A DNA stretch of 64,000 bases, from positions 1-64,000 of the forward strand of contig QPGO01000234.1 in NCBI GenBank assembly GCA_008632985.1, in the 5' to 3' direction. The notes under the pieces were generated by a model that did not search any database, was not told the DNA's origin, and was given only the letters and a program-made list of their open reading frames with translations. How positions within the stretch are numbered: position 1 is the first letter of the stretch; every line of letters begins with the position of its first letter. This DNA comes from Psammoneis japonica (Eukaryota). A program made the translations under genes and the position numbers. Positions 26,936 through 51,800 of the stretch are shown here, one piece after another.

Positions 26936-28032
26936 ATGTCCCGTTTCATCAATCAAAGAAACAAGAACACGCCACAGATTAAATGTGACCGAGACGACAA
27001 CCCCATGAATACAATGCACACCACCTTTGACAAGGATGGCAATAGAACAAGTAAATCATTGGAACATTCTCCGAGCTTCCTCTCTTGCGTTTCTCTTCTC
27101 CAGAGCTGTCGCAATCCTTGGGGACAAATGCGATTCGGAAAAATGTTGGAGGACTTGGATGCACTCGCGGGGAATGTTACCTTTTGTCATGTAGAGGGGA
27201 ATCCGCTTGTTGTGATGGCGGCTGTTGATCGGATTAGGCTGAGGCGTCAGCCAGTGATTGGACAAGACCAACACTTGTCTGGGCGAGTCATGTGGGTGGG
27301 CAACAACAGTGCTGGCATGGAGATTCGCATGCAAGCGAAAACGTTAAAGGAGAGGAATGGCTGGAAGCCTGCTTTACTTTTGTGACGTTGGACCCTGAAA
27401 CCAAGAAACCGGTCACAATGCCTCTCCTCATTGCAACGACCCAAAAAGAACGAGCGGAGTTTGAATTGGGCGCACTCAAGGCCAAATCGAAAAAGCCCAC
27501 ACGCAAGGACAAGCTCAAGGTGGGAGAGCCATTGGCCGAGGCTGCATTGCGAACGGACCGTGGAGGCATGGTGTTTTGCATTTTTGTAGAAGCACAAACC
27601 CTTGGAATCGAGTTGGCTTTTGCCAATGCCTGCGTCTTTGGAGAAGCCAAGCCATGCTTTCTGCAGGTAGATGACATCAGCTTTGATGCACCCGTGGATG
27701 CTGGTGATTTGCTGGTTTTCAGCAGTCGTGTGCTGTGCACGAAACTGGAGGGAGGACATTTGGTAAACTGTTGCGACAACTTGAACAAAGAAGATGAAGA
27801 TGATGCAAAGCCCCACATGTCAAAAAACATGCCTCTGGTTGCCATTGAAGTGGAGGCATGGGTGACGGAACCCGAGAAGGCGAATGCTCGCGCATGCAAT
27901 CATTTTTACTTCACTGTTGCGCCCCCCGAAGGCACGCCATGTCGAAAGGTTCTACCAGGAAACATTGACGAAGCCAGAAGGCAGGCAACCCGAATGGCAG
28001 CCAACAAAGAACACGCCAGCTTGAGATCGTGA
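26936..28032 (+). pseudogene. Acyl-CoA thioesterase (ACOT9-like double hot-dog) pseudogene
   Basis: Motifs CRNPWGQMRFGKMLEDLDALAG, AAVDRI, ELAFANACVF, VDDISFDAPVDAGDLL. Frameshifted, with expected Tyr positions reading Cys. Confidence 0.8.
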
Positions 28033-28646
28033 GCACATCACGATGCGTGAAGCTGCACCATTTGTGAGTTTCCCAGGTGTTGCCAGTGCCGGATCAGATG
28101 AGATGCTGTGTCTGATCTGATCCTCCGCCTCTTCCGATCCTCGTTGATGTTGAGGGAGATCAGAGAAGTTTCGGGAGATGTGATGCAGGACGACGGATGG
28201 CGGCAAGACACAATCTTTCTAACCGTTGCGTGGAATCCAGTGCAAAACCTGCAAACGTGGCTGCACTGCCAGGTCTCCCCCACAAGTCAATGTTCCCGCC
28301 AAACCCAAAACAACCGTTTCGTTTGGGTTTCTCGCATGTTTCTCACAACTCGCACAAACGTCTCTCATCGTGACACCCAAACAAGAGTGTCAACGCTTTG
28401 TAAACAAGCCCACGCAACACAAAAACCCATTGCGGCATTCGATTGCAGCTGACGACAATCGATGCAATGAATGCAACGCCGTTAAAATCGTCGCGTTCGG
28501 CGGAGGATGCCTCCGATTCCTTCAAGATCAACAGCGATTTGAAAACAACTGGTGACGGCAAATCACAAAGTGAGTCGTCGGGAAAGGCTGCTGCGAGTTC
28601 GTGGGAAGCAGGAATGAAGCGAAAGGTCGAAGCCATGACAAAGAAT

Positions 28647-31600
28647 TGACAGGATTTGAACAGGATTTGGGTGCGCGCAAAATGTCACACACAGTTTTGT
28701 GTGCTTCAGTTTGCGAGCGTTCGCGCGCGATGCAGTTTGCTTTCGAGCCACAAGGCTCACAAGAATGACAACAGTGGCCCGATTGTGCCGACTTGCACGT
28801 CTTTCGGCTCCTGCAACGGTCTCTGAGCGGAGACTCATCTGCCATTTAGACAGCAGCAAGGAGTTGTTGTTTGAATTCTTGCCACTTGCCTTCAATTTCT
28901 GTCAGATTGACAGTCTTGCTCATTGTCAACCCATTGAGCAACCGCCATCATCGTCGTTGATTTGCCGACAATGCCACCTCAATTCTGCACGGACCTCCGC
29001 ATGTGTTCTACGTACGTCGGCAAGTCTGCGCGCATTCAACACCAGGCACCGGCAGGAAGTTAACGTTGCCGTCAAATCTCCTTGCCGCTGGACATCTGGA
29101 TTGATTGTGCTGCCTTTTGTCGCTGAAGACATGCACTCAACGGCCATGTCCAAGTCCATCCTTGATCCTCATCCCTTGACACACCCACTCAATGGTTGAC
29201 GGTCAAGAACCCCGCACATTCAAGGATCTTCGTCGCTGAAGACATGCACATGTCTGTGTCTTCACGGCCAAGAACTTGTGCCCACTCTTTGGACCGCGGC
29301 TTTGCCGCCACTCTGCAAGCACACCGAGTCCATTGCACCTGATCTGCCCCGGACTGCTGGTGCTCCACAGTTCCGCTGGGTCCACGAGGACGACTGTGAG
29401 AGCAAGCAGCCGTGATTGCAGCCTGCGTTGGGGCGAGGGTGTTTTCCCGCTTTGTTCGTTCGTCCACAGTGCCCAACGCCTGCGTCAACTGGCCAGCCTG
29501 ATCGGGAAATCCAGCCGACATAAAATGAGAACGGTTCGGCGGTCTTGTCCACCTCCAGTCAGCTCACCTGCAGGGGTTTACAACCCGCTGCTCCACTCGC
29601 AAGCAACCCAAAGCGCCGCTGGCTGTGGGTTCAGACGTGCCGGCACAACTCTACGGACCGGACAGGAGGTTTGGCACTTGACAACAAACGGGACGGCACA
29701 ACCCAGCGACTTCTGATTTTCAAGACAGTCCAAGATTTCAAGTCAAGTCTGGCTCAAGTCAAGTCTTTTTCAAGCCAAGTTCCAAGTCAAAACTCCGAGT
29801 CAAGGTCGCACTCTAGATTGGTTCCTGTCTTTTGTTTCTGCTGCACCGTCCTCCGTCATGGTTCTCACGCGACAGCAACAAACCAAAAGCTTCAAATGCA
29901 TTCCGGGCACTGTGCTCAATCAAGATGATGACAGCCCTCTTCGTTCTGCCCTGTCCATCAATGGGATTGAATCGTGTGAGGAATTGTTCATGTTCTCGCC
30001 CACCCAAATTGACGCCCTCACTTGCAGAGACGGCGCCAATGCAGTGCCTTTGCCACGGACCCACAGAAACCTCCTGGCAGCTTTGATCAGCTTCTGCTTT
30101 GTCAAAGTTTGCAACGGTGATGATGTGACCAATGAACCCCAGTTGCTCACACCCGATGAATTTCGCAACCACCGCCTTGGTCCGGACTGCTTGACCTCTC
30201 TAGCCACTGGCGCAGCACCCTCCGCACCTGTGCCGAGTCCCTTGCCATCCAAACCAGGTAAACCCAGTGCCATTTTGACACCAGCCTTGCACTGTGCCGC
30301 CACTCAGGTGTCCCCCAGAAGTGGTGTCAGTCGCGCCCCGCATGTCTTGACCAACCCGCCTGCAAGCAACCTCGGCCCAGTGCAGGATTGCAGCCCTTGC
30401 ACAGGCCCGCACTTCGAGACCAGTTGGGACACTCCACTCATGGCTTCCAAAGCTGCAGTCTTTGCACCCCGCAAACCACGTGCTGCCAACCTCCACGTGT
30501 CGACCGCTGTCACCCTTCACAGTCTTTGTTTGGGAAGTGATGGAGATGACAACTTGCTTCTCGCATCTCCTGATGGGGAGCCTCCTTTTCCCATCATTGA
30601 ATCTGTTCACAACAGTTCAACCGGTTCATCAGATGGGGAGTTCAGGACATCCAAGCAGCTTCGTTGTCTTCGGATCCTCCAAGCATTGCACCATGAGACC
30701 AGGCCTCCTGACTGGATGCTCCAAGTCTCGCACCTCGAGACTGGGCCTCCTGATTGGATGCCTCAAGTCTCGCACCTCGAGACTGGGCCTCCTGATTGGA
30801 TGCCTCAAGTCTCGTGCCTTGAGACCAGGCCTCCTGACTGGATGCTCCAAGTCTCGTACCTCGAGACCAGGCCTCCTGATTGGATGCCTCAAGTCTCGTG
30901 CCTCGAGACCAGGCCTCCTGATTGGATGCCTCAAGTCTCGTGCCTCGAGACTGGGCCTCCTGGTTGGATCCCCCAAGTCTCGTACCTCGAGACTGGGCCT
31001 CCTGATTGGATGCCTCAAGTCTCGTACATCGAGACTGGGCCTCCTGATTGGATGCCCCAAGTCTCGTGCCTTGAGACCAGGCCTCCCAACTGGACTCTCC
31101 ACGTCTCGTGCCTCGAGACCGGGCCTCCCAATTGGATCCCCCAAGTCTCGCACCTCAAGACTTGGCCTCCTGATTGGATCCCCGAAGACTCGTGTCACAA
31201 GACTGGCAAGTCCTTTTGGATCCCAGAAGTCTTGCAGCACGGGACTGGTTGCCCCAACCAGACATCTGCAGCCTTGCACCACAAGATGTCTTGCTCCAAT
31301 CCGATCCCCGAAGGCTTGCACCTTGAGACTCGTTTCTCCAATTGGATCAGTCTCTCAGGAGATGCAGCTGAGCTTGCAATCGGATTGGTGGAACACAAGA
31401 CCACCGCTTGTGCCTTTGAACTCATGCTTGCTCTGTTCCCCAAGTCGTGCAAATGCCATGTCACCCTGCACGAGCACTGCTCTGTTTTTCTAGCAGCAGC
31501 CCAGTGTGGCAACCGTCCCAAGAACCAACAGACGGCCATCAGTCTTTGTGACCTTTGCTCAGGAAGTGAAGGCGATGTCAACTTGTTTGCATTGTCCTGC

Positions 31601-32170
31601 AATGTTGCCCCGCCGTTCAACATTGTCAACCAGACCAAGCTTTGCTCCTTCCATTGCAAGTGCGGATGTGGAATCCCACAAGATCCCAAGTGTGCCTTGA
31701 GCTTTGAAAAGCACAACGGCATCTGCAATTGGGGAGACGCAGCTCATCTCAAGATGACCCACTTGGAGAATGCAACGTTGCTCTCGGATCTTGATCCTTT
31801 CTTGTCTCCTCATGTTTTGGTGCTTTGACTCCAAAGTTCTTCAGTCAATCCGAAGTCGAATCTGTTTCTGTGACTCCTCAAGCAAACTGGGGAGTGACAG
31901 GATTTGAACAGGATTCAGGTGCATGCGAAATGTCGCGTGCCGTTTAGTTCACCGTGCACAGTTTTGTGTGCTTTAGTTCCGCGCGTTCGCACGCGATGTA
32001 GTTTGCTTTCGAGCCACAAGGCTCACAAGAACAATGACAGCAGCCCGATTGTGCCGACTTGCACGTCTTTCGGCTCCTGTGACGGTCTCTGAGCGGAGAC
32101 TCATCTGCCATTTAGACAGCAGCAAGGAGTTGTTGTTTGAATTCTTGCCATTTGCCTTCAATTTCTGTCA
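28647..32170 (+). mobile_element. Non-autonomous LTR retrotransposon with both LTRs and a 5-bp TSD
   Basis: LTRs 28647-28904 and 31895-32170 (TGACAG...CTGTCA). TSD AGAAT at 28642-28646 and 32171-32175. PPT-like AACTGGGGAG before the 3' LTR. Internal gag-like ORF start at 29858; no RT or integrase recognised. Confidence 0.92.
30690..31200 (+). repeat. 42-bp tandem array (about 12 units, LETGPPDWMPQVS[Y/H/C]) inside the LTR element
   Basis: Unit GAGACTGGGCCTCCTGATTGGATGCCTCAAGTCTCG[TA/CA/TG]CCTC repeated, decaying toward about 31350. Confidence 0.95.
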
Positions 32171-33248
32171 AGAATGTCCACGCAAAGAATGTGAGTTCGT
32201 TTCTTTTTGTGATTGTCGTCAATGCATGGACAGTTTTCGAAAATCTGTGCTGACTAATTTTTTCAATTGTTTTGTCATTTTGATGCGTTTGTTCAACCGT
32301 GCTTGTCTGCAATGCAGCTGAGTCCGCCTGCAGAGAAGTCCGATGACGAATCGAACAAGGTGAGGATCGCAGATCGTTGGGGGGTAAAATCTCATCCCCA
32401 TCTAGAGCTTTCATTTCTGTCTTCCGACTTTCATGTTTAAATTTGTTTTGCAGGATCAATCGAAAGCTGTCAAGATTGAAGAATCCAATGAAGAGCGAGC
32501 GACGAGCGACGAGAGTCTCGATGCGCCGTCAACGTTGATGAACTCTTCGACAGGCACCTTCACGGCAGGCCCTTCAGTGTCGACATCCGCTCTCTCGGGC
32601 GATGTTGCACATTGTTTGTGCATCCCAGCAGATTCACACGGAATGGCAGACCCTTCAAAAGCCTTTTTCTCCATGACTTTGCCTGAGAAAGTCGAGTTTT
32701 CGGAAGAATGCAAGAAGATGGACGCGATGAGCTCGACTGAACTTGTTGGCCATCTGAATGGTCGTGCCAGCGAGGGTCATGTGGCAAATTCTGTGACACT
32801 GCAGCTGCGTCCGAGTGCCCCTGCGAGTCACCTGGCAGTCTCTGCGTCTTGGGCTTGGCTCCCCCCAGGCGCGCTGGGAATTCAAGAATGCACCATGGCA
32901 TCGTTTGCATGCAATGGTGATGCTGAGGGCCCCACGCAGCCTCACCCTAAACGCTGGCGACTGCAATTGGTGACAAAGCCAAACTTGGAACTGCTGAGAG
33001 ACCACCCAGATGTCAAACAGCGCGAGCTTGAAGAAGCCTTGAACCAGTGTAAAGAGAAGGTCGCAGAATGCACTGGGTTGGTCCAGGCGATGCCAGAAGA
33101 ACTCACCACGACGGAGATTTCCGCAGATGCGCTTGAAATGAAGCACAGTGCTGAATGGGAGCTGTCCACAGCAGGCCAAGACTGGAATGATTTTCGAACC
33201 GAAACTCTTTCCCATTGCCGAAAAAAGATTCTCGAAGAGGGCCGTTGC

Positions 33249-33638
33249 GACGCGTTCCAGGTCTAGGTGGGACCTCGTGCCACTGAGCTGTGACATCGAC
33301 AGTTTTTTGAATCACGTCACATGTCACGCACACAGATTTCTACGTGATTTTTTCAATGTTTTGTGTCATTTTACGGCACACTTGTTGAGCGATCCGTCCA
33401 ACAACTTTTTACATTTTTTGTTGCAGCGCGATTCTACAATGTCTTGAGAATCGCGCAGGGCGGGTGCATTTGCAGAAACGTCGAGTGGCAAGAGGCACAA
33501 TTGTGCCACAAACTTGGCAGTTTATTTGATGTTGAAGACAAACATGTCCATCAATTAAATTCTCGCACTGCGGAGCTCGCACGTAGAATTCTGCTGGCCC
33601 AATGTCACACGGAGTCCCACCCAGGACTGGAACCCGTC
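33249..33638. mobile_element. MITE family A, copy 1 (390 bp)
   Basis: TIRs GACGCGTTCCAGGTCTAGGTGGGAC / GTCCCACCCAGGACTGGAACCCGTC with 4-bp TSD TTGC. The empty site is visible in gene copies 2 and 3. Confidence 0.92.
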
Positions 33639-34217
33639 TTGCTGCCACAGGTGTGAGACACCCTGCGGGGAGATTGCTTTTCTCGAGTGCAGCTGTTTTG
33701 ATGCAGATGATCAAGATGCAAATGGCATCTGCAGACTTCGCTTGTGCACAAAGTGCGTGTCAGATTTGAAAGAACTCGAATCCTCGAACCTTGAAGTCTG
33801 CGAAGTTTGCAAAACACTCTCTTGCCAGATCAACCCTGAAGCTGGAAGGTGCAGGGACACCAACTGCGCAACTCACCTGTGTGGGGTGGCAGGAAACAGA
33901 ACCTGCTTGGAGCACATTAAAGGAAAAGGACCCTGAAAGAAAAAGCGCGTGTGCAAGCTGTGTGTCAATGTGTGCTCGTTGGCGAAACCGACTGTTCGGA
34001 GTGTCGTGCCGCTTGCCTGGTGCCAAAAATGCAACAATGGCATCGCAACGGTGGTGCACACAGCAACAGCCTTTGCGGTGGTCACCTCAACAGGGACATC
34101 CTGTCATCTGTCCTTGACTGTTGTGGATCTCTGGAGTTGACGCGGTTTGCTCTGGCAAGCTGCGACAACTTCCGCTTTTCCAAAGCTTGCGTCAAACGAC
34201 TTTGTCAACAGTTGAAA

Positions 34218-34613
34218 GACGCGTTCCAGACGCAGGTGGGAATCCGTGTGACATTGGGCCCGTGGACTTCTACGTGCGAGCTCCGTAGTAAAATTATTCG
34301 GTAATTAAAATGTCAATGATCGCCAACAGAAAATGAGGCAATTTTGCGAACGCACAAACTGGGCCTTGATTGAAGTACATCATTTTTTACTTAGCCGGTT
34401 ACATTCTTCAGACATTGAAGAATGTAACTGGCGCATTATTGTTTCTATAATTTCGTTATATAAAACGTCTGGGGCTTCGCAAAACAGCGAGTCTGGACAA
34501 TTTTTTTTAAATGTCACACGTAGAAATGTACGTGCGAAACATACGACGGATGACAAAAATTATTTGTGTCACACGTCAGTACTACGAGCTCCCACCTAGG
34601 GCTGGAACGCGTC
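34218..34613. mobile_element. MITE family B, copy 1 (396 bp, TpA-retaining, young)
   Basis: TIRs GACGCGTTCCAG..AGGTGGGA / TCCCACCT..CTGGAACGCGTC with 4-bp TSD GAAA. 25 TA dinucleotides counted by eye. Confidence 0.93.
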
Positions 34614-35639
34614 GAAAAGCATTTCGTGCCTCCACAATCATTTCACTTGTGGAGCATCCTTTAAAAAACTTCATTGTCTGGAGGAAGAAGCCCACAATTG
34701 GTTTGGCTTTTTCACTGTCGACGACTTTGAAGATGCCCAGCAATGCCTTCGATGGCATGACAGACTTTCCTTCACAAAGGTCGACGCACCAGAATTCCAA
34801 TCATCCAAAGGATGTGGTGTGATGCATTGTGAAGATCCATTGGGGCTGGGTGCATCGTGCTGGCGGGGCTCATTTGTGGCAACAAGATGCTTTGTTCGAA
34901 TGTGGCATCGCACTGCGCAGTTGGATGGGTGAAGTCACCCACATTTGTTGTGTCTCCCAAGATCGGGTTGGTGTCAACAGCATGTGATCCTTTGGCGCCA
35001 TGCAGAGAACCGGTTCTCACTGGGTTGCACACCATGAGTTGCCTTTGAATCTCTCAATGCCGAGGGAAGACGGCCAAGACTCAGAAGACGAGGACTGCCT
35101 CAGAGTTGTGCGAGGAGACTGAGGCACTTTTTGGACTCAAGTGTGAAGTCAGCATGAGGACTCTTTGTTGCTTTGTGTTCAGTGCCAATGATCTCCATCG
35201 CTTTTGTTGCCATGATGCATTCGAACAAGTCACAGCCACCGAGGGACAAGTCCCTGTCAATGACGAGTCAACGCCCGACGGCCCTCTGCGTTGGGCAATT
35301 ACGACAATCAAGGGTCCCAAAGATGGACCCATGTTCGGCATCCCGGACAAATTGTCTTTGTGAGATTGCACAGAACATGAACATGCGCAACTCTGTGCCC
35401 GCACCACAAGCAGGAACCGCCATCACGTCTGGTGGGTTTAGAGGCACTTCCTGTGGATCAAGATGGAAATTCTTTCTGCTGTCATTAATGTTGTGAAATA
35501 ACTGCTTGCACGTGTCAAAAACAATTTGTGCTTGCATCAGAGAGCAGAGATCATTGCGGCCACAGCTGCCACACACCATGCCGCAGCTGTCAAACAGCTG
35601 GCTTTAGAGCATGGCGTGCCAATTTGTCTGCTCTCTGCT

Positions 35640-35755
35640 CCAGCTAGAGAGTCTCTTGCAGTAGAGCTCTCTAGTAGTAGAGCTCTCTAGCTGGAGAGAG
35701 TAGCTGCTCTACTAGCTAGAGTAGCTCTAGAGAGTTGAGAGTAGAAGCAGCTACA
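35640..35755. repeat. CTAG/TAGAG/CTCTA-rich low-complexity patch
   Basis: CTAGAGAG, TAGAGCTCTCTAG twice, CTACTAGCTAGAGTAGCTCTAGAG. Similar patches occur at 5240-5270, 59865-59895 and 63131-63145. Confidence 0.75.
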
Positions 35756-36201
35756 CCGTAAAAGCTTGCTTGCTTGCTTGGTGCAGTGTGATACGCGGGA
35801 ATTCGTACGGTGCCCTTGAACTGACGTCTGCCAGACGAGCGAGCGAGAACAAAGAAAATCGTGACGTGGCAAAATTCTGCTCACATTTTTTTTGGTCGGG
35901 AGAACAGAACAAAATCCATTTGGCATCTGTCTTCCCACATCCCACATTACGTTTCGGTGTCAAAGATCGTAATACGAAAACCGAAACAAAGAGCTTCACT
36001 ACTGAAAACAGACTGATTTTATCATTCAACCATGATTGGACATACCGTGTTAAAAACCACCATGCGGAAGCATGCCGTCGTCTCGACTCGTTTCGTGAGC
36101 TACGTGCCGCACTTCTCCCCAATGTTTGACACTGCCCATCTTTCTCGTCCGAATTCTCCCCCAAGAATTTCACGCCCTCAGTCATCGGTAGCTGCGGCAG
36201 C

Positions 36202-36376
36202 AATGAAAGGAATGGACCAGGATGACTACACGAGCGTGGCTTTTTTCGGGTCGGTCCTTTTTGTTGGCTTGTACTTTGCAGGACTCGGACAGTGGACTCC
36301 TTTCTTTGTGGAACAAGCCGACCAGCTTCAAAAGAGAGCCACAGCTTCACTTGCGGTGGAGAAAACTACTCAGTGA
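36202..36376 (+). CDS. Possible small single-TM protein
   Basis: MKGMDQDDYTSVAFFGSVLFVGLYFAGLG...; no family recognised and the start is uncertain. Confidence 0.3.
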
Positions 36377-36933
36377 TCTGGTTAGTTCTGCTTCCGGACC
36401 TAGTCAGGGTTCCACATTAATGTGATGGATATTGAGTTGCGAACGAAGCGATACGGATTAAACATCGTGGAACGACGGGTCGATGCTCATATTGTCTAAC
36501 ATTGTTGGTAAGGACGTCTTGTACAGTACATATTATACACGTTTGCATGTCGATCGAAATGGATTGAATTTAGAAAACAAAAGTTAAAAATAGTAATTGT
36601 CAGAACTACCGTATGATTACTCAAAGCGTCGTTGCACATCATCACGGAGTTGCGTACCAACAGTCCCAAGGGACACGCAGTAGACCTATCTTCGCCGGAA
36701 TCGTCCACAGTTAGCTCGTAATTTTGACACAGGCGGCGAGCTAAAACGCCTTCAACATCCTCGAAGTCCAGCATTTTAGCACAAAGATCGGGTGGCAAAA
36801 GCACAACCGACCACATCTGATTTTGCACGCGGCCTCTCGCCTCACGCACCCATCAGGCACGAGATAACAAAAACATCACCACCATGGCGTCCAAATCTTC
36901 TCTTCCTGTAGCAAAACATTACAGGATTGTGTA

Positions 36934-38301
36934 GTGGGTCCATCACCCGAAGAACGACTTGACGGTTCTCCCTCGTGGTGTCCTGTATTGTCGTCATGTT
37001 GCACCGAACCTCCCTTGAAAAAGGCAAAAGAAGCCTCTCCATCAGAATCATGCACCTTTCAACATGCGGTCGATACCTTCTTGACGTCTGGTTGCTGTGT
37101 AATTCCCAATGTCCTTCCCAAAGCATTTGTGAAAGATTGTTTGTCTAAAGCGCAATCGGATTGGAACTTGTTGGATGAAACATATAAGAGACGCAAAGAA
37201 ACAGTATCCAATAACAATCATCATGAGTATGCCGCCGTTCAACGCATGGATTTTGCCGAAGTGGTTGCCCGAGATGGACAACGAATTGATGTAAGGTTTC
37301 AGTTGGATCGATTTCCTTTTGTAACGCCTGGGTTGATTTACAATCCAATTGTCTTTCCGTTGGTACAAGCCTTGTTGCAATATGGAACAGACTATTCACA
37401 GCAACCACAACAGCAACAACAACCATCGGATCAATCGGCCATTCATCTATTGTATGCGGGTATCATGTGGGCCATGCCTGGGAATAAGGACAATAATAAG
37501 GAGGAGCCGAGTACACCCCAGAAATGGCATGCCGACGGAGATCACTTGTTTTCGCACGTCCATTTGCCACCTCATTGCATCAATGTGTTTTATCCTCTCA
37601 TCGATTTGAACAAAGACAATGGTCCCACGCAAGTTCAAGCGGGGACTCATCAATTGGGAAATTTTGCAGGACACGACCATCCTACCTTTGATTTACAAGT
37701 CAATGCCGGGGGTGTCTGTTTGTTTGATTATCGATTGAAGCATCGTGGTGGTGCAAACCTTTCAAAGACGCCTCGACCCATTTTGTACTTGGCGTATGCA
37801 AAATCCTTTTATCGGGATGTAGGAAACACTCGATCGTTGAAATCGATATTTTTAGACGACTCCACCATTGATTCACCCCCATGGGTGCCACGTCTCTTGC
37901 GAGGACAAGCCATGCCGCAAATGGGGCAAGGATTTGAACACTTCCAGAATGGACCAAACAAAGACTCCTCGTGCAACACTGTTGCGAATGTGAATTCACA
38001 ACCAGATTCGACACAAACGTTAGAGAACTCATCCAACACACCTAATGGTACTATCATCCCTTCCACCACTTCCAACGTTGGTGAACAATGGGTCCTCTTT
38101 CAAATGACAGTTGAATTGGGTCAAGGTGTGGCCGCACAAACCTTGCGTGTCCATCACGGAGACATTCCCATAGAAGTCGCCACCCAGTTTTGTATAGAAC
38201 ATGGAATTGATCCAGTGGCCATTCCCGCCTTGACGGATATGATTCAACAACAAATGGATGCGGCACTACGGACTGCCGCCCAGACAAAAGAGAGCGGATA
38301 G
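36934..38301 (+). CDS. PhyH-family Fe(II)/2-oxoglutarate dioxygenase
   Basis: Motifs QKWHADG, NVFYPLIDL...GPT...GTH, FDYRLKHRGGAN...RPILY. True start uncertain. Confidence 0.85.
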   Translation: MGPSPEERLDGSPSWCPVLSSCCTEPPLKKAKEASPSESCTFQHAVDTFLTSGCCVIPNVLPKAFVKDCLSKAQSDWNLLDETYKRRKETVSNNNHHEYAAVQRMDFAEVVARDGQRIDVRFQLDRFPFVTPGLIYNPIVFPLVQALLQYGTDYSQQPQQQQQPSDQSAIHLLYAGIMWAMPGNKDNNKEEPSTPQKWHADGDHLFSHVHLPPHCINVFYPLIDLNKDNGPTQVQAGTHQLGNFAGHDHPTFDLQVNAGGVCLFDYRLKHRGGANLSKTPRPILYLAYAKSFYRDVGNTRSLKSIFLDDSTIDSPPWVPRLLRGQAMPQMGQGFEHFQNGPNKDSSCNTVANVNSQPDSTQTLENSSNTPNGTIIPSTTSNVGEQWVLFQMTVELGQGVAAQTLRVHHGDIPIEVATQFCIEHGIDPVAIPALTDMIQQQMDAALRTAAQTKESG

Positions 38302-38414
38302 TGCAAGATTACCCTATAAGAGTGGGTTGGGCCTAATCATTTAATGTTTTACTGACAACCGGTAACCTTGCAGGGAACATGTTCTTACGTCATCACTCAC
38401 ACCGGTAGATCGAA

Positions 38415-39902
38415 TCACTTGGAACGCCGCTGCACACGAAGTTTCGTGCCAACCGACTTGAGAGTCACATAGTATATTTCTTCGCCAGGATCCTCCACTG
38501 TGAATTCGTAACTTCGACAGAGACGAGCCAGAATACCATACACCTCGGCTGTAGCCAATACTTGACCTTGACAACCTCTACGTCCAAGAGAAAAGGGCAT
38601 AAAGGCTTTCAATACAGCCTCGTCCGGGTCTTCCCACCGCGACGGCACAAACGAGTCGGGGTTTTCAAACACGTCACCATCTCGGTGCATCAAATAAAAG
38701 GGAAAATCGACCCAGCTCTTTGCCGGAATCACCATATCCGAGTCGGGGACGGAAATATCACGTTGGACTTGCCGCATACTACCCAAGGCAACCGTCGGAT
38801 GGAGTCGATGCGTTTCTCGAACGACGCGTTTCAACGCGGCAGACTGTCGAGCCGCATCGTCGGTTGGACACTGACAGAGCGCCTTGTAAAGTCGCGTCTG
38901 CTCTTCCAAATGACGCGCCAGTTCCAACAAGGCCCAGGTGATTGTGTAGGAAGACGTGTCGTATCCGCCAACAAAGTAAAGTACCATATCCGCGGCACGC
39001 TCTTCATCGTTGGCATACCCGTCGTCGTTTGCAATTAGGTACAGAATCGAATTGGGGTTGGGATTAGGACATTGTCGATGAGCATCAAGAATGTCCGCAA
39101 ACTTCTTCTTGAGCTCGCGAGCACATTTGTGTGCATATCGATTGCTGGCAAACATCCACGCCGTGAAAGGAAGTGCCCGAAGAAGGCTCTGCTTGCAGGT
39201 GTCGGAAAACTCAATGTAACAAGTTTTGACCAAATATGCCAGTCGATCTACTTCCTCGGGTGTAAATTGATAGTCAAAAGCCACGCGACCAATAATACGC
39301 ATTGTGAGTCGACTCATTTCTTTGTCTACAACAATCGCCTCGTTTGACGCAATCCCTACAGGTTCGAGATGAGTCTCGATCCATTCCGAAAGCAAGTTTT
39401 CAATGATTCCCGTCATTCTCTCGACGTTCTTACTGGCAAATGCCGGATTTGTGGACTTGCGGACGTGAGAAAACCGCGCTCCTTCCGAGCAAAAAAAGGT
39501 TGAGTTCGCCGCTGCTGCCGTCTGGTCAAACATTAGGTATGCAAGAGAGGGTTTCGTTGACTTTGGGTCTTCCAGCACCGAACGGGCCACGCGATAGTCC
39601 CACGCAACACAAAAGTTGATCCATGGGGGAACATCCTTTAGGTAGAAGGCCTTTCCAGACACTGTTTTGGCCGCCTCTCGCAGCAACATGGGCCCATGCG
39701 GACTGCCGAGAGCTCTTGATGAGAAATCCACCAATGGTGGAACTTTCTTGTCGATGCTTTGACTAGAACGCTGAAACCATGACTTCACCGTCCAGAGGCC
39801 CACCACGCCTGTGAATAACCAGACGTAAACGTCCGGAATGTCTCCCACTGCTGCTGTCATGGCCTTTTTTTGTGGTATCGTGTTGTCTGAAACTGGAGCC
39901 AT
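38415..39902 (-). CDS. Cytochrome P450
   Basis: N-terminal TM anchor, I-helix GGYDTS, ExxR (ETHR), FVPSRW and the heme motif FSLGRRGCQG. Confidence 0.95.
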   Translation of the reverse strand: MAPVSDNTIPQKKAMTAAVGDIPDVYVWLFTGVVGLWTVKSWFQRSSQSIDKKVPPLVDFSSRALGSPHGPMLLREAAKTVSGKAFYLKDVPPWINFCVAWDYRVARSVLEDPKSTKPSLAYLMFDQTAAAANSTFFCSEGARFSHVRKSTNPAFASKNVERMTGIIENLLSEWIETHLEPVGIASNEAIVVDKEMSRLTMRIIGRVAFDYQFTPEEVDRLAYLVKTCYIEFSDTCKQSLLRALPFTAWMFASNRYAHKCARELKKKFADILDAHRQCPNPNPNSILYLIANDDGYANDEERAADMVLYFVGGYDTSSYTITWALLELARHLEEQTRLYKALCQCPTDDAARQSAALKRVVRETHRLHPTVALGSMRQVQRDISVPDSDMVIPAKSWVDFPFYLMHRDGDVFENPDSFVPSRWEDPDEAVLKAFMPFSLGRRGCQGQVLATAEVYGILARLCRSYEFTVEDPGEEIYYVTLKSVGTKLRVQRRSK

Positions 39903-40058
39903 TGCGGTTGATCGGAACACGTCAGTTTGAAGTGAAGAAGAGGCAGGCGGCAGGCAGTGTGATTCCGAAAATCCAAGACTCCTTTTTCGTCGTGTCCCGC
40001 CACCCCTCTGCGAACGCGCGTACGTGCACCTCGCGCGAAAGGCACAAAAAAAATACAG

Positions 40059-40644
40059 CACCAGTAAAAAACCGAATTGAGTCCTTATGACTGAACTGAG
40101 TCCTTATCCGACCCATATGTTGAATCGATCGATAAAATGATGAAAAAACCAAGTAATCAAACTGTTTTTGTTGCTGTGATAATCTTCAATTGCTGCTGCT
40201 TCTGACCATGTGTTTGGATTTGGGTGTTTCAGTTTTCTCCGGCTGCCCGTTGCCGTCGAACATGGTCGTTTGTATTTTTTGAAGCGGAAACGAGATTCAA
40301 CAATTCTCATGTAATTTTTTTATCAAGACACGCACATCATATATCCTCACTGCTCCGTGCTGCTTGCTGATTTGGAGATGTGTTGAATTTCTTCTGGTGC
40401 TTGACACGCAGAAATGTGCAGGGGGGCCGAATTGAGTCATCACGCGAAAAAGGTGCAACTTTTGCAGCTAGATTAAGCTAATCCCAAGCCCATTTCACAA
40501 CCGACCATCATCAAAGAACTCGTTAAGAGATGATGAAAAGCTGGGGAAATGCAAAGAAATGGTCAGTTTTAGGCCAATGATGGGCAAAAAATGGCCATTC
40601 AACATGTGGCAAAAATGAGGACTCAATTCGTTTTTTCACTGGTG
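40059..40644. mobile_element. Non-autonomous TIR element (CAC termini, possible 5-bp TSD)
   Basis: Left CACCAGTAAAAAACCGAATTGAGTCCTTAT versus reverse complement of right CACCAGTGAAAAAACGAATTGAGTCCTCAT. Flanks are TACAG and CGCAG. Confidence 0.75.
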
Positions 40645-41188
40645 CGCAGACTAGCTCGAAGCTAAAGGACTGAGGCGAGCGCGCGTAAATGTGAAGTGGT
40701 CAGTCCCGCCCACTCGTGACTCAGCACTTCCCCACGGTGAAAATTGCGCAGGAATCCGACGATGACAAAAACGGTCAGATGACTTCCGCTGACAACAATG
40801 TCAACTGCATGTGACTTGCATTCTGTGTTCGTGAATGCTTGGGTCAACCGCTTTGGGCATCACACACAGTTGTTTTGACGAGCTGGAAGTTGCCCGAACA
40901 AAAAACGAGTCGTGCGGAGCACCGCAGCTTTGTGCGCAATGCAGTGCTTGGCGTTGTTTTGGCAAAGTTCAGGGAAATGACTGCATGCAACACTTCAAGT
41001 GGTTAATTTGTGCATTGAGGGTGGTCGGCTGCTGCTTTTTTTGGCTTGAATTCGGCCAAACAGCTCGTGTTTTGCGCGATTTTTCCTGAATTTCACCGCA
41101 CTTCACCGTGGTGAAAACAGCAAGCCATGAGTCTGTGATGGAGGTGGCCCGTCTGACAACTCTCATTTGTTTTGTGTTTGTCATGTGT

Positions 41189-41976
41189 GATGCGTTCCAG
41201 GTCCAGGTGGGATCTCGCGCCACTGAACTGTGACATCAACAGTTTTTTGAATCGCGTCGCATGTCGCGCACGCACATTTCTACGTGATTTTGGCAAAATT
41301 TTGCATCATTTTACAGCACAATTGTCAGGCGATCCATTTGACAACTTTTAACATTTTTTCTCCTGCACCATTCTCGAGTGTCTTAAGAGTGGTGCAGGGC
41401 AGGCGCGCTGTCCAAAACTTCGAGCACGCACAGAGATGTGTGTGCTGCAAACTTGGCCGTTCATTTTGTGTCAAAGACAAACACATCCATTGACCAGAGC
41501 ACAAACTGCAGAGCTCGCACCCAGAATTCTGTGGGGCAAATGACGCGTTCCAGACGCAGGTGGGAATCCGTGTGACATTGGGCCCGTGGACTTCCACGTG
41601 CGAGCTCCGCAGCAAAATCACATGGCAATTAAAACGTCAATGATCGCCAACAGAAAATGAGGCAATTTTGCGAACGCACAAACTCGCACATGATTGAAGT
41701 GCATCATTTTTTACTTGGCCAGTTACATTCTTCAGACATTGAAGAGTGCAACTGGCGCATTGTTGTTTCTGTAAATTTGTCACATGAAACGTCTGGGGCT
41801 TCGCAAAACAGCGAGTCTGGACAATTTTTTTTAAATGTCACACATAGAAATCTATGAACGAAACATGCGACGAATGATGAAAATCATTGTTGTCACACGT
41901 CAGTGTTGCGAGCTCCCACCTGGGGCTGGAACGTGTCAAATGTCACAAAAAGTCCCGCCTGGGGCTGGAGCCCGTC
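41189..41976. mobile_element. MITE family A, copy 2, containing nested MITE B copy 2
   Basis: Colinear with 33249-33638 once 41542-41941 is removed. Flanks GTGT and GCAT read as a diverged 4-bp TSD. Confidence 0.88.
41542..41937. mobile_element. MITE family B, copy 2 (396 bp, hypermutated)
   Basis: Colinear with 34218-34613; 4-bp TSD AAAT. Confidence 0.93.
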
Positions 41977-42399
41977 GCATCAAAGATTGCGCGCACATGA
42001 AAAGTTGGCAGACGGCAAACTGCATTTGTGAGAAATGTCGACATTGCCATCATCGTCGTGCTTCGATCGCGGTGCATGATGTTCTTGTTTTCATGCGTGA
42101 TCGGGGGTGAATGCAAACAATTTTTGCGCTCAAAAACAAACACTGCAAATGTCTTCGTTCAAATGCCATGGTGACTCCAGGACAAACGCGGGGATGACCC
42201 CCCTTAAAGAACAATGAATGCACGTTGCATGCAGCAAAAATTGTCACTGGTGGAAGTCATCTGACCGTTTTAGTCATCTTCGGATTTCTGCGCAATTTTC
42301 ACTGTGGGAAAGTGCTGAGTCATGAGTGGGCGGGACTGACCACTTCCTGTGTCCGCGCGCTCAACACAGCCCTCACCTTCGGCATCTGGGGAAATTCTC

Positions 42400-42601
42400 A
42401 AGTCTCCAGCCAGCTGCTGGCTGAAGAAATTTGTGTAGAAATTGCACTGAAAGAGTCTGTCAATCTGTGCGTCAGGGGGTTTTGGTGAACGCTGGACAGA
42501 CTCGTCTTCTTTTGCGCATGTAAAAATTGTGCTGCACTTGCAAAACCGCCCAAACGCACTGACGAGCAGACTTTTTTCAGCCAGCAGCTGGCTGGAGACT
42601 T
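42400..42601. mobile_element. Small inverted-repeat element (about 200 bp)
   Basis: AAGTCTCCAGCCAGCTGCTGGCTGAA ... TTCAGCCAGCAGCTGGCTGGAGACTT. The interior resembles about 48750-48875 in inverted orientation. Confidence 0.65.
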
Positions 42602-42645
42602 CCCCCCATGTCTCCCCATTGCATCTGACACATTTCAAATGCACC

Positions 42646-44428
42646 ATGGCGTCGGCCGCAAGCATCAACGACCATGACAGTCCCACACAGCCTGCTCCGA
42701 AACGTCAGAGACTGACAGTGGAGTCAGATTTAAACTTGAAAGCACTCAGAGAGAACCTGGAGGTGAAACAGCGCGAGCTCGAAGATGCCTTGAACACGTG
42801 CAAAGAAAAGCTCGCTGCGCACCTGCATGCAAGCGACACCAGAAGAACTCATGTCGGCTGACACTCCCCCCGTCAAGTGTCTCAGTCAAAAGAGTGATGC
42901 TGAACAAAGTCTTTCTCGTGTCGGAAGAAAGTGGAATGACATTCAGACCCAAACTCTTTCCTTTTGCCGAAAAAAGCTTCTCAACGAGGGCCGTTGTTGC
43001 CACCGGTGTGAGGAGACACCCAACGGGGAGACAGCTTTGCTTGAGTGCGGCTGTTTTAATGTAGATGATCGTGACACAAGTGGCATCTGCGGACTTCGCT
43101 TGTGCACAAAATGCGCATCAGATTTGAAAGAATTCAAATCATCGGATCTGAAAGTCTGCGAAGTTTGCAAAACACTTTCTTGCCAGATCAACCCTGAAAC
43201 TGGAAGGCACAGTTCCGCCAAATGCGCAACTTGCTTGTGCAAGGTGGCAGAAAACAGCACCTGCTCGGAGCACATTGAAGGAAAAAGATCTTTGGAGAAA
43301 AAGCACGTGTGCAAGCCATGTGTCCGTGCATGCTCCGCCCCATTGCGCATTTTGACTGGGCATGTGTCGCCCGAGCCAGCACACAAAATGCAGCTGAGGA
43401 GTCAGAATGATGGCGGTTGCAGCAACACCATTTTCGGTGGTCACCTCAACAATGACATCCTGTTGATCATTCTTGACTGTTGTGGATCGAGAGAACTGAT
43501 GCGGTTTGCGCTGGCCAGTTTCGACAACTTCCATCTTGCCGAAAGTTACGCGAGTCGACTTTGTCAATGCTTGAATGGCAGCCCTGCCCCAAAAGAGTGT
43601 TGGACATCATCTTGTAGATGGATCAATCATCTTGAGTTTCAAGTGGCAGAAAGGTTTTGCTTTTTATCAATCGACGACTTTGAAGGCGCCCAGCGACACC
43701 TTCGGCGCTGCGACAACCTTTGCTTTACAAAGGTTCACCAGCCACATGACTGCGCATCAGTGGAACATAATCTGATTTTCATTGAGGAGGATTTTCTTGA
43801 GCCGGCAACGCTTGGGGCCATTTGCGGCAACAAGAGCCTTTGTTCCAATGTGGGATCGCATTTTGTCATTGGTCGTGTGCATTCATCGCAGTCTGTCGCT
43901 CCACTTTCGATCGGATTGGTTTCAACAGAATGTGATCCTTTGGCGCCATGTAACGAACCGGGTTCTTGCTGGGTTGCACACCATGAGTTGGATTTTAGCC
44001 GCTTTGTTCCGCCCATGGACGACGATGTCGACCAGGTTGATGCAATTTTCGGTGTCAAGTTTGAACCTGATGCGCGGATTCTCTCGCATTTTGATTTTTT
44101 TGCTGAAGATCTTGATGAATTTTTCCGCATTGATGGTGAGGACGAAAGGCCACTCAGTGGAGCCAGTGCGATGGAATGACAAGTCTGCATCAAAGAAGCT
44201 TCAATGCCTGCAGGTCCACTGCACTGAGCAATGACAATGGGCACAAACGAGGAACCTGCCGCTGAAAGCGAGTTTGAAATGCCGTCAGAGGTGTCGTTGC
44301 GCGATTGCACCGCAGCTGAATTTGACCAACTTTATGACCGCTCTTGCAGGCAGCACAAGAATCACGGCTTCGCATTGTGTCACAGGGTTGTTTGGCATTG
44401 CTTCCATCTGTTGACTTCATCTCATTAG
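42646..44428 (+). pseudogene. F-box-like gene family copy 2
   Basis: Frameshift near 42825 and internal TGA stops. F-box-like LNNDILLIILDCCGSRELMRFALAS; C-terminal SPRY-like pattern. Confidence 0.8.
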
Positions 44429-44699
44429 CCAAATGAGGGAAAGATGACGAGGCAGGTGCATCCAGCAGCCTGCCACCCCTCTGTTTGGTCAAAGATGGAG
44501 CGAAAAGCCTGATCGTTGCATTTTGAGCTCGCGAAGCGGCAAAGGAAGCTGCGAGTCATTTGTGTTTTCTTTCACAACAAGCCTGACCTTGTCATGGCCG
44601 CAAATCGGCTTGGAAGATCTCATCTTTCCTCGTCCCCGTGATTGGAGAAAATGGGTGCAGATTTGGCCCAAATGTGAATTGCTTCCATGAAACACATTG

Positions 44700-46350
44700 T
44701 GTGGCACCCATTGTGCAAGCTGTCAATTTTGCTCCACCCCTCGAAGAACTCAGACTTCTCCTTTAGATTTCTTCGTGCCTTTGGATTTCTTGGTGCACGA
44801 CTTCTTTCCTTTCTTTCCGAAACACAACGAATCGTCGCTGTTCTCCACACCAGATGACATGGCTGAAAACAAATCATGGTGAGTGCGGTGGCAGCATGCA
44901 TCTCGTTCATTGTGGACGTCACCGGATCCATGTCCTCCCAGCCGTCCATGCATTCGCGACCCCAGCTCGGTTCACTGTCGGTCGCGGCCGTGTAAACCGC
45001 CGTGTGGCCATGTGCATGTGGGAGCATTGGCATTTGGAAGAAACTCGCCAGAAAAACACTGATCGTGAATCACAAAGAGCCGTTGCACTGGACAGTCGGC
45101 GTTGTCAGCTTCAAGCTCAACTGGTGTGTAGATCTCACCGCCATCAGCAATCCCGTCACTGTCAAAGTCCCACAGGTTGAGACCACAGGTGTTCGTTCCA
45201 TGCATGGTGTGACGCGCAGATGAGTGGCACGTCCGTTTCAACATCAAGATGCTGACACAGCTCCCCCATCTTGGCACGAATCGTGTCTTGTTTGGTTGTG
45301 CCACTCGCAACGTCGTTTGTTGCAAAGTCATCATTGTCACCATCACCATTGTTGAGATAAAGTGGGTTGGACCCAACAGTGTGCAGGTGAAGATCAGGCT
45401 TGCCAGAAAGCCACAGCCCCAGATCTTGCTGCAGAGGCTCTTGAGGTTGGCGGCATGCCTTCTGAAAGTTGGCCCTGTCATTGATGTTGCCAGACATCAA
45501 AGCCAAATGAAGGCACTCCTTGTCTTTGGAAGTCCTCCTCCTTCTTTCCAGACAAACATCTGGAGGCTTGTGGGGAATGTCCGGACAGCTCAGCGGTGTG
45601 ACCTCTTTGCACGTGAAGCAGAGTTCACTTCCATGCCCTTGGCCTGCCCAGACGGTTGTTGAAGGAAAGTCTTTGCCAAACTCCTCAACATGGTTCACAC
45701 ACATCCACTCTGCCTCACACCCAAAGTTTGAAAATGGTGCAGGGTCAAGCATGACAACCCAGGTGAGCAGGCATGGCTGAAGCAAGTCACAAATCCCTTG
45801 GTCGTGGTCATGAGCCACAGCAGGAGTCTGCCCAGATGCTCTGTCTCCTGGCATGGCAAAGTCCGTCATTCAGATTGCCTCACTCTCAATGGCTTGGTCG
45901 CGCACCTTTCATTCAATGTGATCAACTGCATCCTCTGGAGCAAGATTTCAAACTCTTCAATGTCAGCCAATGCCGGGGGAAAGGCCGTGCTGGCAAGAAG
46001 AGCAAGTCTGCAAACCATTGGCTTGGAAAGAATCATGGGTCACAACAAAACTGGACCCAACACGTCACTTGAATTCTGGCTCAACATTGCAAAGCTGCTC
46101 AGATTGCTTCTCTTTGATCAGGAGCTGCAACAAGCAAAGATTGCAAGCATGAAAAAATCAACACCAAAGCAAATCTCATCATGGCACAGTGCACTGACCT
46201 TTCCATTGTTTGTGAGACAATCTTTGCAAGAATCAAGACAAAATGTGTGATGCTCATCATGCAATTCCTCCTCTGATGCACGTTTTTGAGTCTTGACAGA
46301 TGCAGATGGAGCCTTGAAATCTTCGGTGTTTGCTGCCATCCATGGCTCAA
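44700..46350 (-). pseudogene. Clan CD (C13/caspase-like) peptidase, copy a
   Basis: Frameshifted homolog of 51801-53381, with LFVIHDQCFSG and HTAVYTAA. Confidence 0.75.
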
Positions 46351-46799
46351 TTCATTTCATTCCCCAATTTCTGAGCGCACTTTCAATCATTGTGCCACAT
46401 GATGTGTTGGTGGCTTTGATTTCCATCTGCTTCTCTTTGTCATGTGCTCAACGTGATTTTCAGTCTCAATGCCGCACAACAGATGCTTTGTTTCCACAAC
46501 ACTTGTTGCAATCCATGGCTCAAATCATTTGAGTTCCTGGCACACTCATTGGAGACATCTGACCATGACTTTCATTTCTCCACAAGAACTGCCATCTCTC
46601 CCTCACTGTGAGACATGTTCAAAATGTCAATGGTTGCAAGATGCCATGCTTCGCCCCAAACAGATGAGTGGTTGATGGTTGCATCATTCATTGGTGATGA
46701 CAATTCCAACCCAAACTGGGAAAATGAGTGAGTGTGGGATTCCAGCCAGGAAAAAGTGAGCACGGGAGTCTGTCTGTGTCCCCCCCATCACCCCCCCCA

Positions 46800-48700
46800 A
46801 CTGTGCCAGCCATCTTGTCATCTGTGTGTGTGCTTCCTTGTGTGCAATCAATGCAACAGATGACTTGTGCACCTCTGCCACCAAAGATGATTCAAAACCA
46901 GTCCACCGTGACTGTCACCATCTGGGGCAGCAGTCTTTGCAGTGGGAGATTGAAGCTGGCAGTGGTTCGGTTTGCTCAGATGGTGGAGGCAAAGACACCA
47001 ATGAGTTGCTCATGTTGTTGATCACATGGCTCAATGCATTTGAGGAGTGGGTTGTTTCCAAGGTCAACCTTTCAAAGAAACCAGACAAACTGTCCCCAGC
47101 AGTGAGTTGCTTCTGGGAAGTGCCAGCCAGGGACTCCTTTGTGATGGGCTCTTTGAGCAGCCATGTCACAACTTGCAAGACAAACTCTGGCAGCAGCAGT
47201 GGGCACAATCAAAGCCCAGTCAGAACCTGCTGTGAAGGAATGAAATGATGAAACAATGTGATGAGTGGATGGAGGGGACAGTGTGTCCCTGGACAGCGGG
47301 GCTGCTGTGATGTTCTCCTTCTCCAAAAACCACTGGCTGTGCAGACAATGTCCCTCCTCCAAGGTGTCCATGGCCAGGGCTCTTGCAACATCAAGCTGTG
47401 TGACCATGTTGTTGTCCAAGTGGGGCTTGTGCATCTGCCCCATGACTGTTGTGCTGTTGCCCCACAGAAGGCAGCATGACTCTGCAGGGGGTTGACCACG
47501 ACACAGAGTGTCCATGACACAGGTGGTGCAGCATGCCACCAGGAACTCCAGGGTGTTGAGCACAGCACAACATCAGAGATGCGCAGGCAGCTCCCCAACT
47601 GCTGTGCCACACCTCAGGCAGTGCAGAAGCCCCCAAACCCATGTTTGCAGGCATCGGATCTGCAAATTTGATTTGGCAAGCAAAATGCCACAATGTTCTT
47701 CAGGCTGATCCCCCAACCACAAAATTGCCATCCCTGATGGCAGCCAGAGGCTCAGAAGCCTTGGGGATCATGCCCCAAATCCAAGATGGAGTTGTCTTGT
47801 CAAACTTGTTCCCAGATGATGTGTGGCCAGACACTCCACCATGTTCCTCTGCCAAGTTCTTGTGGGAGGTGAGAGACTGGCCAATTTGCAAAAAAGGAGC
47901 GGCCTCTGGTGCTGATGCTGTGCCAGATGGGGACATCATGGCGGTGCCTGCAGAGGCAGCATTGTTGCCAGAAATGGGGATGCCAGGTGGTGCGAGCCTT
48001 CCCATGGTTGCAGAGGAGCCGATGCCCAACTCTCAGCCCTGGAATGGGCGAGAGTGTCAAGTGCAGAACCTCTCATCTTGCTGGAAGAGCTGCCAACCAC
48101 GGGAAATGGACAACGGGACAAAAAACTGCACCAGTGGCAAGTTCTTGGTTGCTGCATCAAAGTTTTGAAAAAATCTCAGATGGCCAGCTTTGACGTGACA
48201 GCCCCAGCCAAAAATTGTGGGATGAGGATGATGATGCGGAGCAAGGTGCAGGCTTCAGCAGCATCCCAAGGTGCTGTCAGCAGCGCCTTTGCATCAGCTG
48301 GCGATGATCCTCCTGCTGATTGGAGTGCAGCAATCCAATCCAGAGCTGTCGTGGGTGAGTCATCAACATGCCAGAGACACAAGCTGGGTGGTGCAAGAGC
48401 CGGCATGGTGTGAGCACCATGGCCGCTCTCAGCGCCCAAATGGAGTTTTTTTGTTCGGGGTTGAGGGGGGCTTGAGGTTGACATGCAGCTGGTGGGTGAG
48501 CTTCACATTCCCCAGGGTGCCAGGGATGAGTCCCACCAACAAGTCTCTCAGCACCAACATCTCCGCATGGCACGCCTCGGCAGAGAGAGGTCGTTGTCGA
48601 AGAACGTGGCAAAGCCGCAACTCGCGTGTGCTTCGCACGAAAGGCACACACAAAATTCCAACCCTGCCCTCCATGACATTTGGGGGGCATGTCTGGACAG
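46800..48700 (-). mobile_element. DIRS/Ngaro-like tyrosine-recombinase retrotransposon relic (RNase H region)
   Basis: GISLKNIVAFCLPNQICRSDACKHGFGGF, LNTLEFL, LWGNSTTVMG, CLHSQWF...NITAAPLSRD follow the DIRS-type RNase H pattern (SDA..G.G, N.LE, DNT, N..AD.LSR). Limits approximate. Confidence 0.7.
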
Positions 48701-51651: not shown

Positions 51652-51800
51652 CCTTGTCATGGCTGCAAATCAGCTTGGAAGGTTGTGCTCTCATCTGTCC
51701 TCGCCCCCATGATTGGAGAAAATGGATGCTGTGCAGACATGGCCCGAATGTGAATTACTCCATGAAACATGTTGTGTGCTCATTGTGCAAGCTGTCAATT

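Follow-up and report, generated by a model that had tools for sequence, protein, structure and literature searches.

Why do two copies of one small transposon, both present in the 64-kb window studied here (the whole stretch of 64,000 nucleotides that was analysed, contig QPGO01000234.1), differ so largely at a single dinucleotide, TA, and which of the two has changed? The copies, A1 (34218..34613) and A2 (41542..41937), are both 396 bp long and lie on the plus strand. They are MITEs, short for miniature inverted-repeat transposable elements, and, to judge from their sequence, they belong to an abundant 396-bp family of non-autonomous DNA transposons with terminal inverted repeats (TIRs). A preliminary description of this DNA had treated the pair as a direct mutation spectrum. 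We consider it highly probable that A1 and A2 are a young and an old copy lying within a regional process that mutates TpA to CpA or TpG in chosen DNA of a diatom-like nuclear genome.

The two copies were compared by ungapped alignment. They align without a gap, with 354 of 396 positions identical and 42 differences. A1 has 25 TA and A2 has seven, all of which stand at TA places of A1; the other 18 TA of A1 are CA (nine) or TG (nine) in A2. These counts had been given in the preliminary description and proved exact when recounted, as did its statements that no TA had changed by transversion and that no new TA had appeared in the second copy: the only fates of A1's TA are CA, TG and TA, and A2 has no TA of its own. 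Changes of T to C or A to G affect 18 of the 50 bases within TA, but only 4 of the 175 A/T bases that lie elsewhere (Fisher p = 4e-10). Conversely, none of A1's 52 CA/TG is TA in A2, giving a split of 18 to 0 (binomial p = 8e-6). The remaining 24 differences comprise 10 transversions, 10 C>T/G>A changes (six of them at CpG) and four changes from A or T (W) to G or C (S) outside TA. When all transitions of the pair are considered, 22 of 32 run from W in A1 to S in A2. On these comparative data, the per-base rate of change in A2 is ~16-fold higher within TA than elsewhere in the copy.

Methyl-CpG decay resembles this pattern in that it too converts a palindromic dinucleotide to TG/CA, and it acts also in parts of the TA-poor islands described below; it differs in acting on C, not on A/T. 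As the sole cause it is ruled out, given that 21 of A1's 27 CpG are kept in A2 while 18 of 25 TA were lost. The six others are TG (four) or CA (two) in A2, which has 23 CpG in all, so that the earlier statement that most CpG persist in both copies also stands.

Polarity of the change in the MITE family

Taken alone, the pairwise pattern is symmetric, and it fits equally well a process like the repeat-induced point mutation (RIP) of fungi, in which the ancestor would have had CA or TG at the 18 sites and the first copy would have gained TA by C-to-T changes at CpA on both strands. RIP converts CpA to TpA, so that repeats become TA-rich and AT-rich. The four copies in the window (A1, A2 and two copies of a related subfamily, B1 and B2) leave the polarity ambiguous when used by themselves, and both the comparison of one TIR with the other and the flanks of B2 are fitted equally by a TA ancestor and by a CG ancestor.

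Data for the wider family came from one sample, whose sequencing runs contain the stretch; short contigs of its run X1 were placed on 34150-34680 of A1 at a likeness of at least 80% (1,966 pieces). Shares in the family are weighted by depth; variants below 10% are not listed and were counted as zero, three rows are not shown, and haplotypes, such as CG at sites with two variants, are invisible in data of this kind. Contig depth within A1 exceeds that of the flank (89) by a factor of ~100 to 4,300, and the family therefore has hundreds to thousands of copies.

The preliminary description had proposed that TA was lost rather than gained, and had named a consensus with CA/TG at the 18 changed sites as the finding that would speak for gain. 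Such a consensus was not found: among the X1 contigs placed on A1, most of the depth has TA at 14 of the 18 sites, and TA is the commonest state, short of a majority, at two (34376 and 34392) and in the minority at two (34542 and 34580). The polarity first proposed is upheld by these shares, and the sequence context of the changes, described below, agrees with it. Several further observations speak against a RIP-like gain. Only 4 of A1's 52 CA/TG have TA variants at 10% of depth or more. At 34376/7 (24% and 34%) and at 34580/1 (27% and 56%), one and the same TA has CA as well as TG variants; each of these sites is GTAC, so that its half-sites on the two strands are both TAC. Since such a pair of variants requires more than one step from a CA or a TG ancestor, neither ancestor is possible in single steps. 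A1, the copy that would have gained TA, is the youngest copy, and its empty allele is still present. Finally, the C>T change at CpA that defines RIP is not what the locus records, as 0 of 52 CA/TG have become TA, the family consensus keeps TA, and the repeated and duplicated DNA of the window is TA-free, the tandem paralogues described below (P1-P3) having 2.9-8.3 TA/kb. In favour of a gain, the B copies have CA or TG at 34286, 34542 and 34580, and the family majority is TG at the last two of these. On balance, we regard a RIP-like origin as very improbable. At one further position, 34554/5, where A1 has CA, A2 reads TG, and T stands at 34554 in 32% of the family depth, a pattern which fits a TA ancestor mutated differently in the two copies.

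The family as a whole varies in the same manner as the pair. Among 37 variants listed at 10% of depth or more there are 22 T>C/A>G changes, six C>T/G>A changes and nine transversions; relative to A1, 22 of the 28 transitions are thus T>C/A>G. All but one of these 22 lie within A1's TA, and the last, at 34263, is followed by A in 95% of the family. When each TA was split into its two strand-specific halves (5'-TA followed by base N), variants were found at 13 of 16 TAC half-sites, 4 of 10 TAT, 1 of 8 TAG and 3 of 16 TAA across the element (Kruskal p = 0.001), with TAC thus at one extreme of the bias and TAA towards the other. This bias accounts for one-sided variation at some sites and two-sided variation at others, and it argues for recurrent, context-driven mutation rather than for subfamily markers.

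A different reading accepts the polarity, but places the losses earlier: the source copy or subfamily of A2 had already lost TA, so that the pair records the divergence of two lineages and not local decay. Eleven of the 18 A2 variants are carried by 21-58% of the family depth, and are therefore either recurrent at hot sites or inherited from the source copy of A2. Moreover, at five transversion sites (34361, 34363, 34366, 34451 and 34528) the family agrees with A2 at 67-99% of depth, so that A1 and A2 do differ by lineage markers. However, the other seven of the 18, each under 10% in the family, are private to A2, and the shared ones stand at hot TAC half-sites (13/16), as expected of recurrence. 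A2 also has CpG>TpG/CpA changes at 34299, 34520, 34531 and 34610 that are missing from the family table, and this private CpG decay makes A2 the more decayed copy. In addition, it lies within a nest of elements in which TA density falls with age (see below). We therefore judge inheritance of the bulk of the difference unlikely, if not to the same degree as a RIP-like gain. Of the earlier claim that the pair gives a direct mutation spectrum, the spectrum itself holds, but a clean in-situ clock does not, owing to the 11 shared variants.

Several other features of the element were noted. Three clustered transversions at 34361-34366 set A1 apart from 93-99% of the family depth (family G>C, G>C and T>A); they are unrelated to TA and either private to A1 or a marker of its subfamily. 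A perfect 13-bp internal palindrome of A1 (GTTACATTCTTCA and its complement, 34394-34432) is altered in A2 in the right arm only, at 34422 and 34425, and the mirrored TA of both arms are variable in the family, at 23% and 33%. The right flank of A1 (34618-34680) has a contig depth of 168-303, versus 89 on the left flank, which suggests extra, nearly identical copies of this part of P1 elsewhere, or that both alleles were counted. A search of the metagenome contigs of public collections with a 22-nt internal motif of the element gave no match; a 17-nt motif matched 31 metagenome and 24 prokaryote-genome loci, all of them by chance, the longest alignment to the element being 27 nt.

Nested elements and TA-poor islands

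A1 is flanked by a GAAA duplication (34214-34217 and 34614-34617) and is inserted in P1 (32887-35054), which forms a set of diverged tandem paralogues with P2 (42642-46793) and P3 (49791-53784). One contig, with a depth of 89.3, skips exactly 34214-34613, that is, 400 positions or 396 + 4, and represents the empty site of A1; the insertion is therefore young and still polymorphic. Once the element and one duplication are removed, P1 aligns colinearly with P2 and P3. A2, on the other hand, is the innermost member of a nest. Flanked by an AAAT duplication (41538-41541 and 41938-41941), it lies inside B2 (41189..41976, minus strand), which it splits into 41189-41541 and 41942-41976. B2 and A2 are in turn contained in an outer element (40666..42373) with inverted repeats of ~165 nt (40666-40830 and 42209-42373, 82% alike). 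B2 has 4 TA in 388 bp, and the outer element 4 TA in 920 bp of its own DNA. Expressed per kilobase, there are 4.3 TA in the outer element, 10.3 in B2, 17.7 in A2 and 63.1 in A1, compared with 2.9 in the host sequence that surrounds A1. TA density in the nest thus falls from the inner to the outer element, that is, with age.

The other B-type copy, B1 (33249..33638, minus strand, 8 TA), is also an insertion in P1 and has a TTGC duplication. The B subfamily is common to A only at the two ends, over ~72 nt and ~98 nt. The 24-nt ends of A1 and A2 are 87.5% complementary, and the B copies have the same ends. In being small and non-coding, with TIRs, a target-site duplication, hundreds to thousands of copies and nested as well as polymorphic insertions, the A family is like other MITEs. 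Target duplications are TA for Tc1/mariner elements and TWA for PIF/Harbinger elements; unlike those of such common sources, the A and B duplications are non-specific 4-bp sequences (GAAA, AAAT and TTGC). The flanks of B2 are GTGT (41185-41188) and GCAT (41977-41980). They can be understood as one duplication altered twice if the original was GTAT (TA>TG and TA>CA), but GCGT with two CpG decays fits equally.

The depletion of TA extends far beyond the MITEs. About 37% of the window consists of nearly TA-free islands that are sharply bounded, with normal DNA between them. When A1, A2, B1 and B2 are excluded, the islands total 23,585 bp and contain 103 TA (4.4/kb, observed/expected ratio (O/E) 0.07), versus 1,449 TA in 37,718 bp of normal DNA (38.4/kb, O/E 0.55). 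Island I (170..5180) has a sharp right edge at 5186; island II (27000..35300) contains an open reading frame (ORF) with a 42-bp tandem repeat, P1 and the insertions B1 and A1; island III (40600..48926) contains the transposon nest and P2, and the left end of the outer element is its left edge, which is sharp at ~40686; island IV (49881..53400) contains P3. Within 45358-48927, no TA starts in 3,569 bp, an event with a chance of ~e^-140 at the normal rate. The losses first noted in the MITE pair are not specific to MITEs: the process is regional and directed at TpA.

The composition of the islands shows what became of the missing TA. Relative to normal DNA, CA+TG is higher by 47.7/kb, TA is lower by 34.0/kb and CG is lower by 14.9/kb, such that the gain balances the loss; GC content is 0.511, versus 0.472. 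The islands have 2281 CA and 2357 TG, and both strands are therefore affected, as the preliminary description had proposed from the even split in A2 (nine CA vs nine TG). In most TA-free kilobases the CpG O/E is 0.8-1.0, the only CpG-poor ones being at 1-3 kb and 46-48 kb (0.04-0.19), and since CpG is kept in most of the TA-free DNA, the loss of TA is separate from methyl-CpG decay. TA survival in the islands also depends on the following base, being 0.135 for TAA, 0.087 for TAG, 0.061 for TAC and 0.020 for TAT (chi-square p = 6e-14).

It might be argued that no mutation bias exists at all, the islands being foreign DNA, or selected to avoid TA (because of UA-cutting nucleases or stop codons), or a base-calling artefact at modified bases, with the difference between the MITEs unrelated to them. 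Island ORFs without homologues are indeed what foreign DNA would have, and some long-read methods make systematic errors at modified motifs. However, the family of A2 occurs throughout the host and has a TA-rich consensus, and it was inside an island that A2 lost TA. Neither strand and no frame is favoured in the loss, and the differences between P2 and P3 are spread evenly over the three codon positions (61/70/69), which excludes coding selection there. The X1 contigs agree with the window in the TA-free flanks of A1 and carry the same variants. To this may be added the balance between CA+TG gained and TA and CG lost. We therefore give this explanation almost no credence, even less than a RIP-like gain.

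Gene content, host and other features of the window

The islands are rich in ORFs that resemble nothing known. Of 24 examined, 23 have no Pfam family and the last has a Peptidase_C13 match below the cut-off. The transposons among the island DNA are affected by the loss of TA; otherwise the islands contain orphan ORFs, and nothing viral is recognisable. One island ORF of 623 aa had no homologue in a word-indexed search and a single hit, without a Pfam family, in an exhaustive HMMER search (E = 1e-6). Given the even spread of the P2-P3 differences over codon positions, this ORF is probably not a constrained gene. The long island ORFs are best read as a by-product of the loss of TAA and TAG.

The normal DNA, in contrast, contains eukaryotic genes, some with introns, which encode a proteasome subunit, UAA and MFS transporters, a light-harvesting protein, a mitochondrial carrier, a P450 and a fibrillin. 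The named relatives of the light-harvesting protein are all from diatoms or bolidophytes (58-78% identity; the best unnamed match has 84%), and the only named relative of the P450 is from a diatom. Neither of the two has an identical protein on record. On the strength of these proteins, the host looks like a diatom, that is, a stramenopile, of a lineage unrelated to chlorarachniophytes. The relatives of the light-harvesting protein rule out that the window comes from the chlorarachniophyte Bigelowiella natans (B. natans). An examination of the window's proteins revealed no deaminase gene within the 64 kb.

A TIR element of 730 bp at 49016..49745, between islands III and IV, has ends formed by GACTCTGTCCAAACACTGTCAT and its complement, flanking TAA on both sides and 47 TA (64/kb). 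Being TA-rich, it looks young, and the flanking TAA suggests a MITE of the PIF/Harbinger type. The stretch at 1001-3000 of island I, with almost no CpG (O/E 0.04-0.08 at 1-3 kb) or TA, looks like an old, probably methylated element, and its ORFs yielded no Pfam family. Within 45358-48927, the CpG O/E is 0.1-0.19 at 46-48 kb, CA/TG reach 220 per kb, and overlapping ORFs of 120-270 aa, which are probably spurious, run in several frames on both strands. In island II, a 703-aa open frame (29717-31828) without a Pfam family contains the 42-bp tandem repeat, thirteen copies of which, 62-89% alike to the reference copy, occupy 30588-31343. It is bracketed by direct repeats of ~260 bp at 28647-28904 and 31895-32170, which lie 3.2 kb apart, are 85% alike (92% globally), have one and four TA, respectively, and are possibly the ends of another element.

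Mechanism and comparison with known systems

Based on these observations, we propose that a regionally targeted process changes TpA to CpA or TpG, by A:T to G:C transitions on either strand, and has thereby stripped chosen stretches, amounting to 37% of the window, of nearly all TA. On this reading A2 is an old copy, in a nest of transposons three deep inside an island, that has lost 18 of 25 TA, and A1 is a recent, polymorphic insertion in another island that still keeps the TA of its family. The left flank of A1 is TA-free at single-copy depth, and high copy number is therefore not required for targeting. The intactness of A1 and of the 730-bp element suggests either an episodic process or one that is slow compared with transposition.

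What the sequence data demonstrate is the mutation spectrum together with its direction, its confinement to regions and its dependence on context; chemistry and purpose are inferences from these. As to the chemistry, the most likely route would be a strand-neutral, enzymatic deamination of A within 5'-TA of DNA, the product being read as G when the DNA is replicated, and a deaminase of the TadA/ADAT type is the candidate that we favour. Deaminases edit double-stranded RNA (ADAR), DNA (APOBEC) and A34 of tRNA (TadA/ADAT), and a product of A-to-I deamination is read as A>G. The edited A34 of tRNA follows U33, and bacterial TadA has UACG as its site. These sites match both the requirement for 5'-TA and the preference for TAC seen here, a resemblance that may serve as a lead; the natural substrate of TadA/ADAT and of ADAR is RNA, whereas the substrate here would be DNA. 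The products would be no different if a modified thymine mispaired with G, which is a possible alternative. The purpose of the process may be to disable mobile or foreign DNA.

Some of the evidence weighs against the reading that we prefer. The placement of contigs on A1 itself biases the family shares somewhat towards A1's letters. The TG majority at 34542 and 34580, and the CA or TG of the B copies at these sites and at 34286, mean that A1's TA could be derived there, or that the sites could merely be hot. Because 11 of the 18 A2 variants are shared, part of the difference between A1 and A2 may predate the insertion of A2. The context most affected is not the same throughout, as it is TAC in the MITE family, and TAT is the rarest among the survivors in the islands. 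None of the 24 island ORFs has a Pfam family at the cut-off. Finally, the support is comparative; no new mutation was observed, and no enzyme was found in the 64 kb.

A closely similar process, a hypermutation that is specific to TpA and affects integrated viral regions, has recently been described in B. natans (Mettrop et al., bioRxiv 10.64898/2026.01.13.699255). In that preprint, 230 of 231 new mutations that arose during mutation accumulation in two integrated regions, one of giant-virus and one of virophage type, were A>G or T>C, all of them at TpA; the genome has 124 TpA-poor, CpA+TpG-rich clusters, mostly unannotated; the de novo rate was ~1000-fold above background and episodic; and the authors propose an ADAT2-like DNA adenine deaminase, with Bn78255 as the candidate (10.64898/2026.01.13.699255). 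Full-text literature searches returned no other report of TpA-targeted A:T-to-G:C hypermutation.

The two systems are alike in that the only changes are A>G/T>C, occur at TpA alone and yield CpA or TpG depending on the strand, and in that the effect is regional, with TpA-poor, CpA+TpG-rich clusters full of unannotated ORFs. Furthermore, transposon-type domains are enriched among the low-TpA genes of B. natans, which resembles the transposon targets found here. They differ in the host, which is a chlorarachniophyte there and diatom-like here, and in the victims, which are viral regions there, whereas those dated here are MITEs and a small family of tandem paralogues. The depletion is far deeper here, with an O/E of 0.07 and 3.5 kb free of TA, versus a Rho of 0.45 in a region from a nucleocytoplasmic large DNA virus. 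Rates were measured there and are inferred here. A bias by the base 3' of A is seen here, and the text of the preprint does not contain the words 'diatom', 'trinucleotide' or 'context'.

The likeness to RIP lies in dinucleotide-specific transitions that strike mobile or duplicated DNA on both strands, and a logic of genome defence is plausible for both. The polarity and the product are opposite, as TpA is here turned into CpA/TpG, which leaves the targets free of TA and with more GC.

The window thus shows a regional, TpA-erasing process of the kind recently described, which here affects transposons, in a lineage unrelated to the first. Such a further case from another major algal lineage would mean that the process is not peculiar to one strain, and that transposons are affected too and not integrated viruses alone. 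The polarised natural spectrum, together with the trinucleotide bias, would allow a direct comparison with candidate deaminases, and TA-free, CA/TG-rich islands beside normal DNA would provide a genomic signature for screening. They also carry a warning for annotation, since the islands, in which two of the three stop codons are gone, contain long spurious ORFs. In a wider sense, we put forward, as a conjecture that we hold to be somewhat less than probable, that diatoms also run a DNA-level defence by TpA-specific adenine deamination against transposons and other marked DNA, which can proceed to zero TA over kilobases; that the TAC bias points to an enzyme derived from TadA/ADAT; and that the MITE family can serve as its clock. 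If this were true of diatoms in general, 'reverse RIP' would be a widespread eukaryotic genome defence, rather than the oddity of one species.

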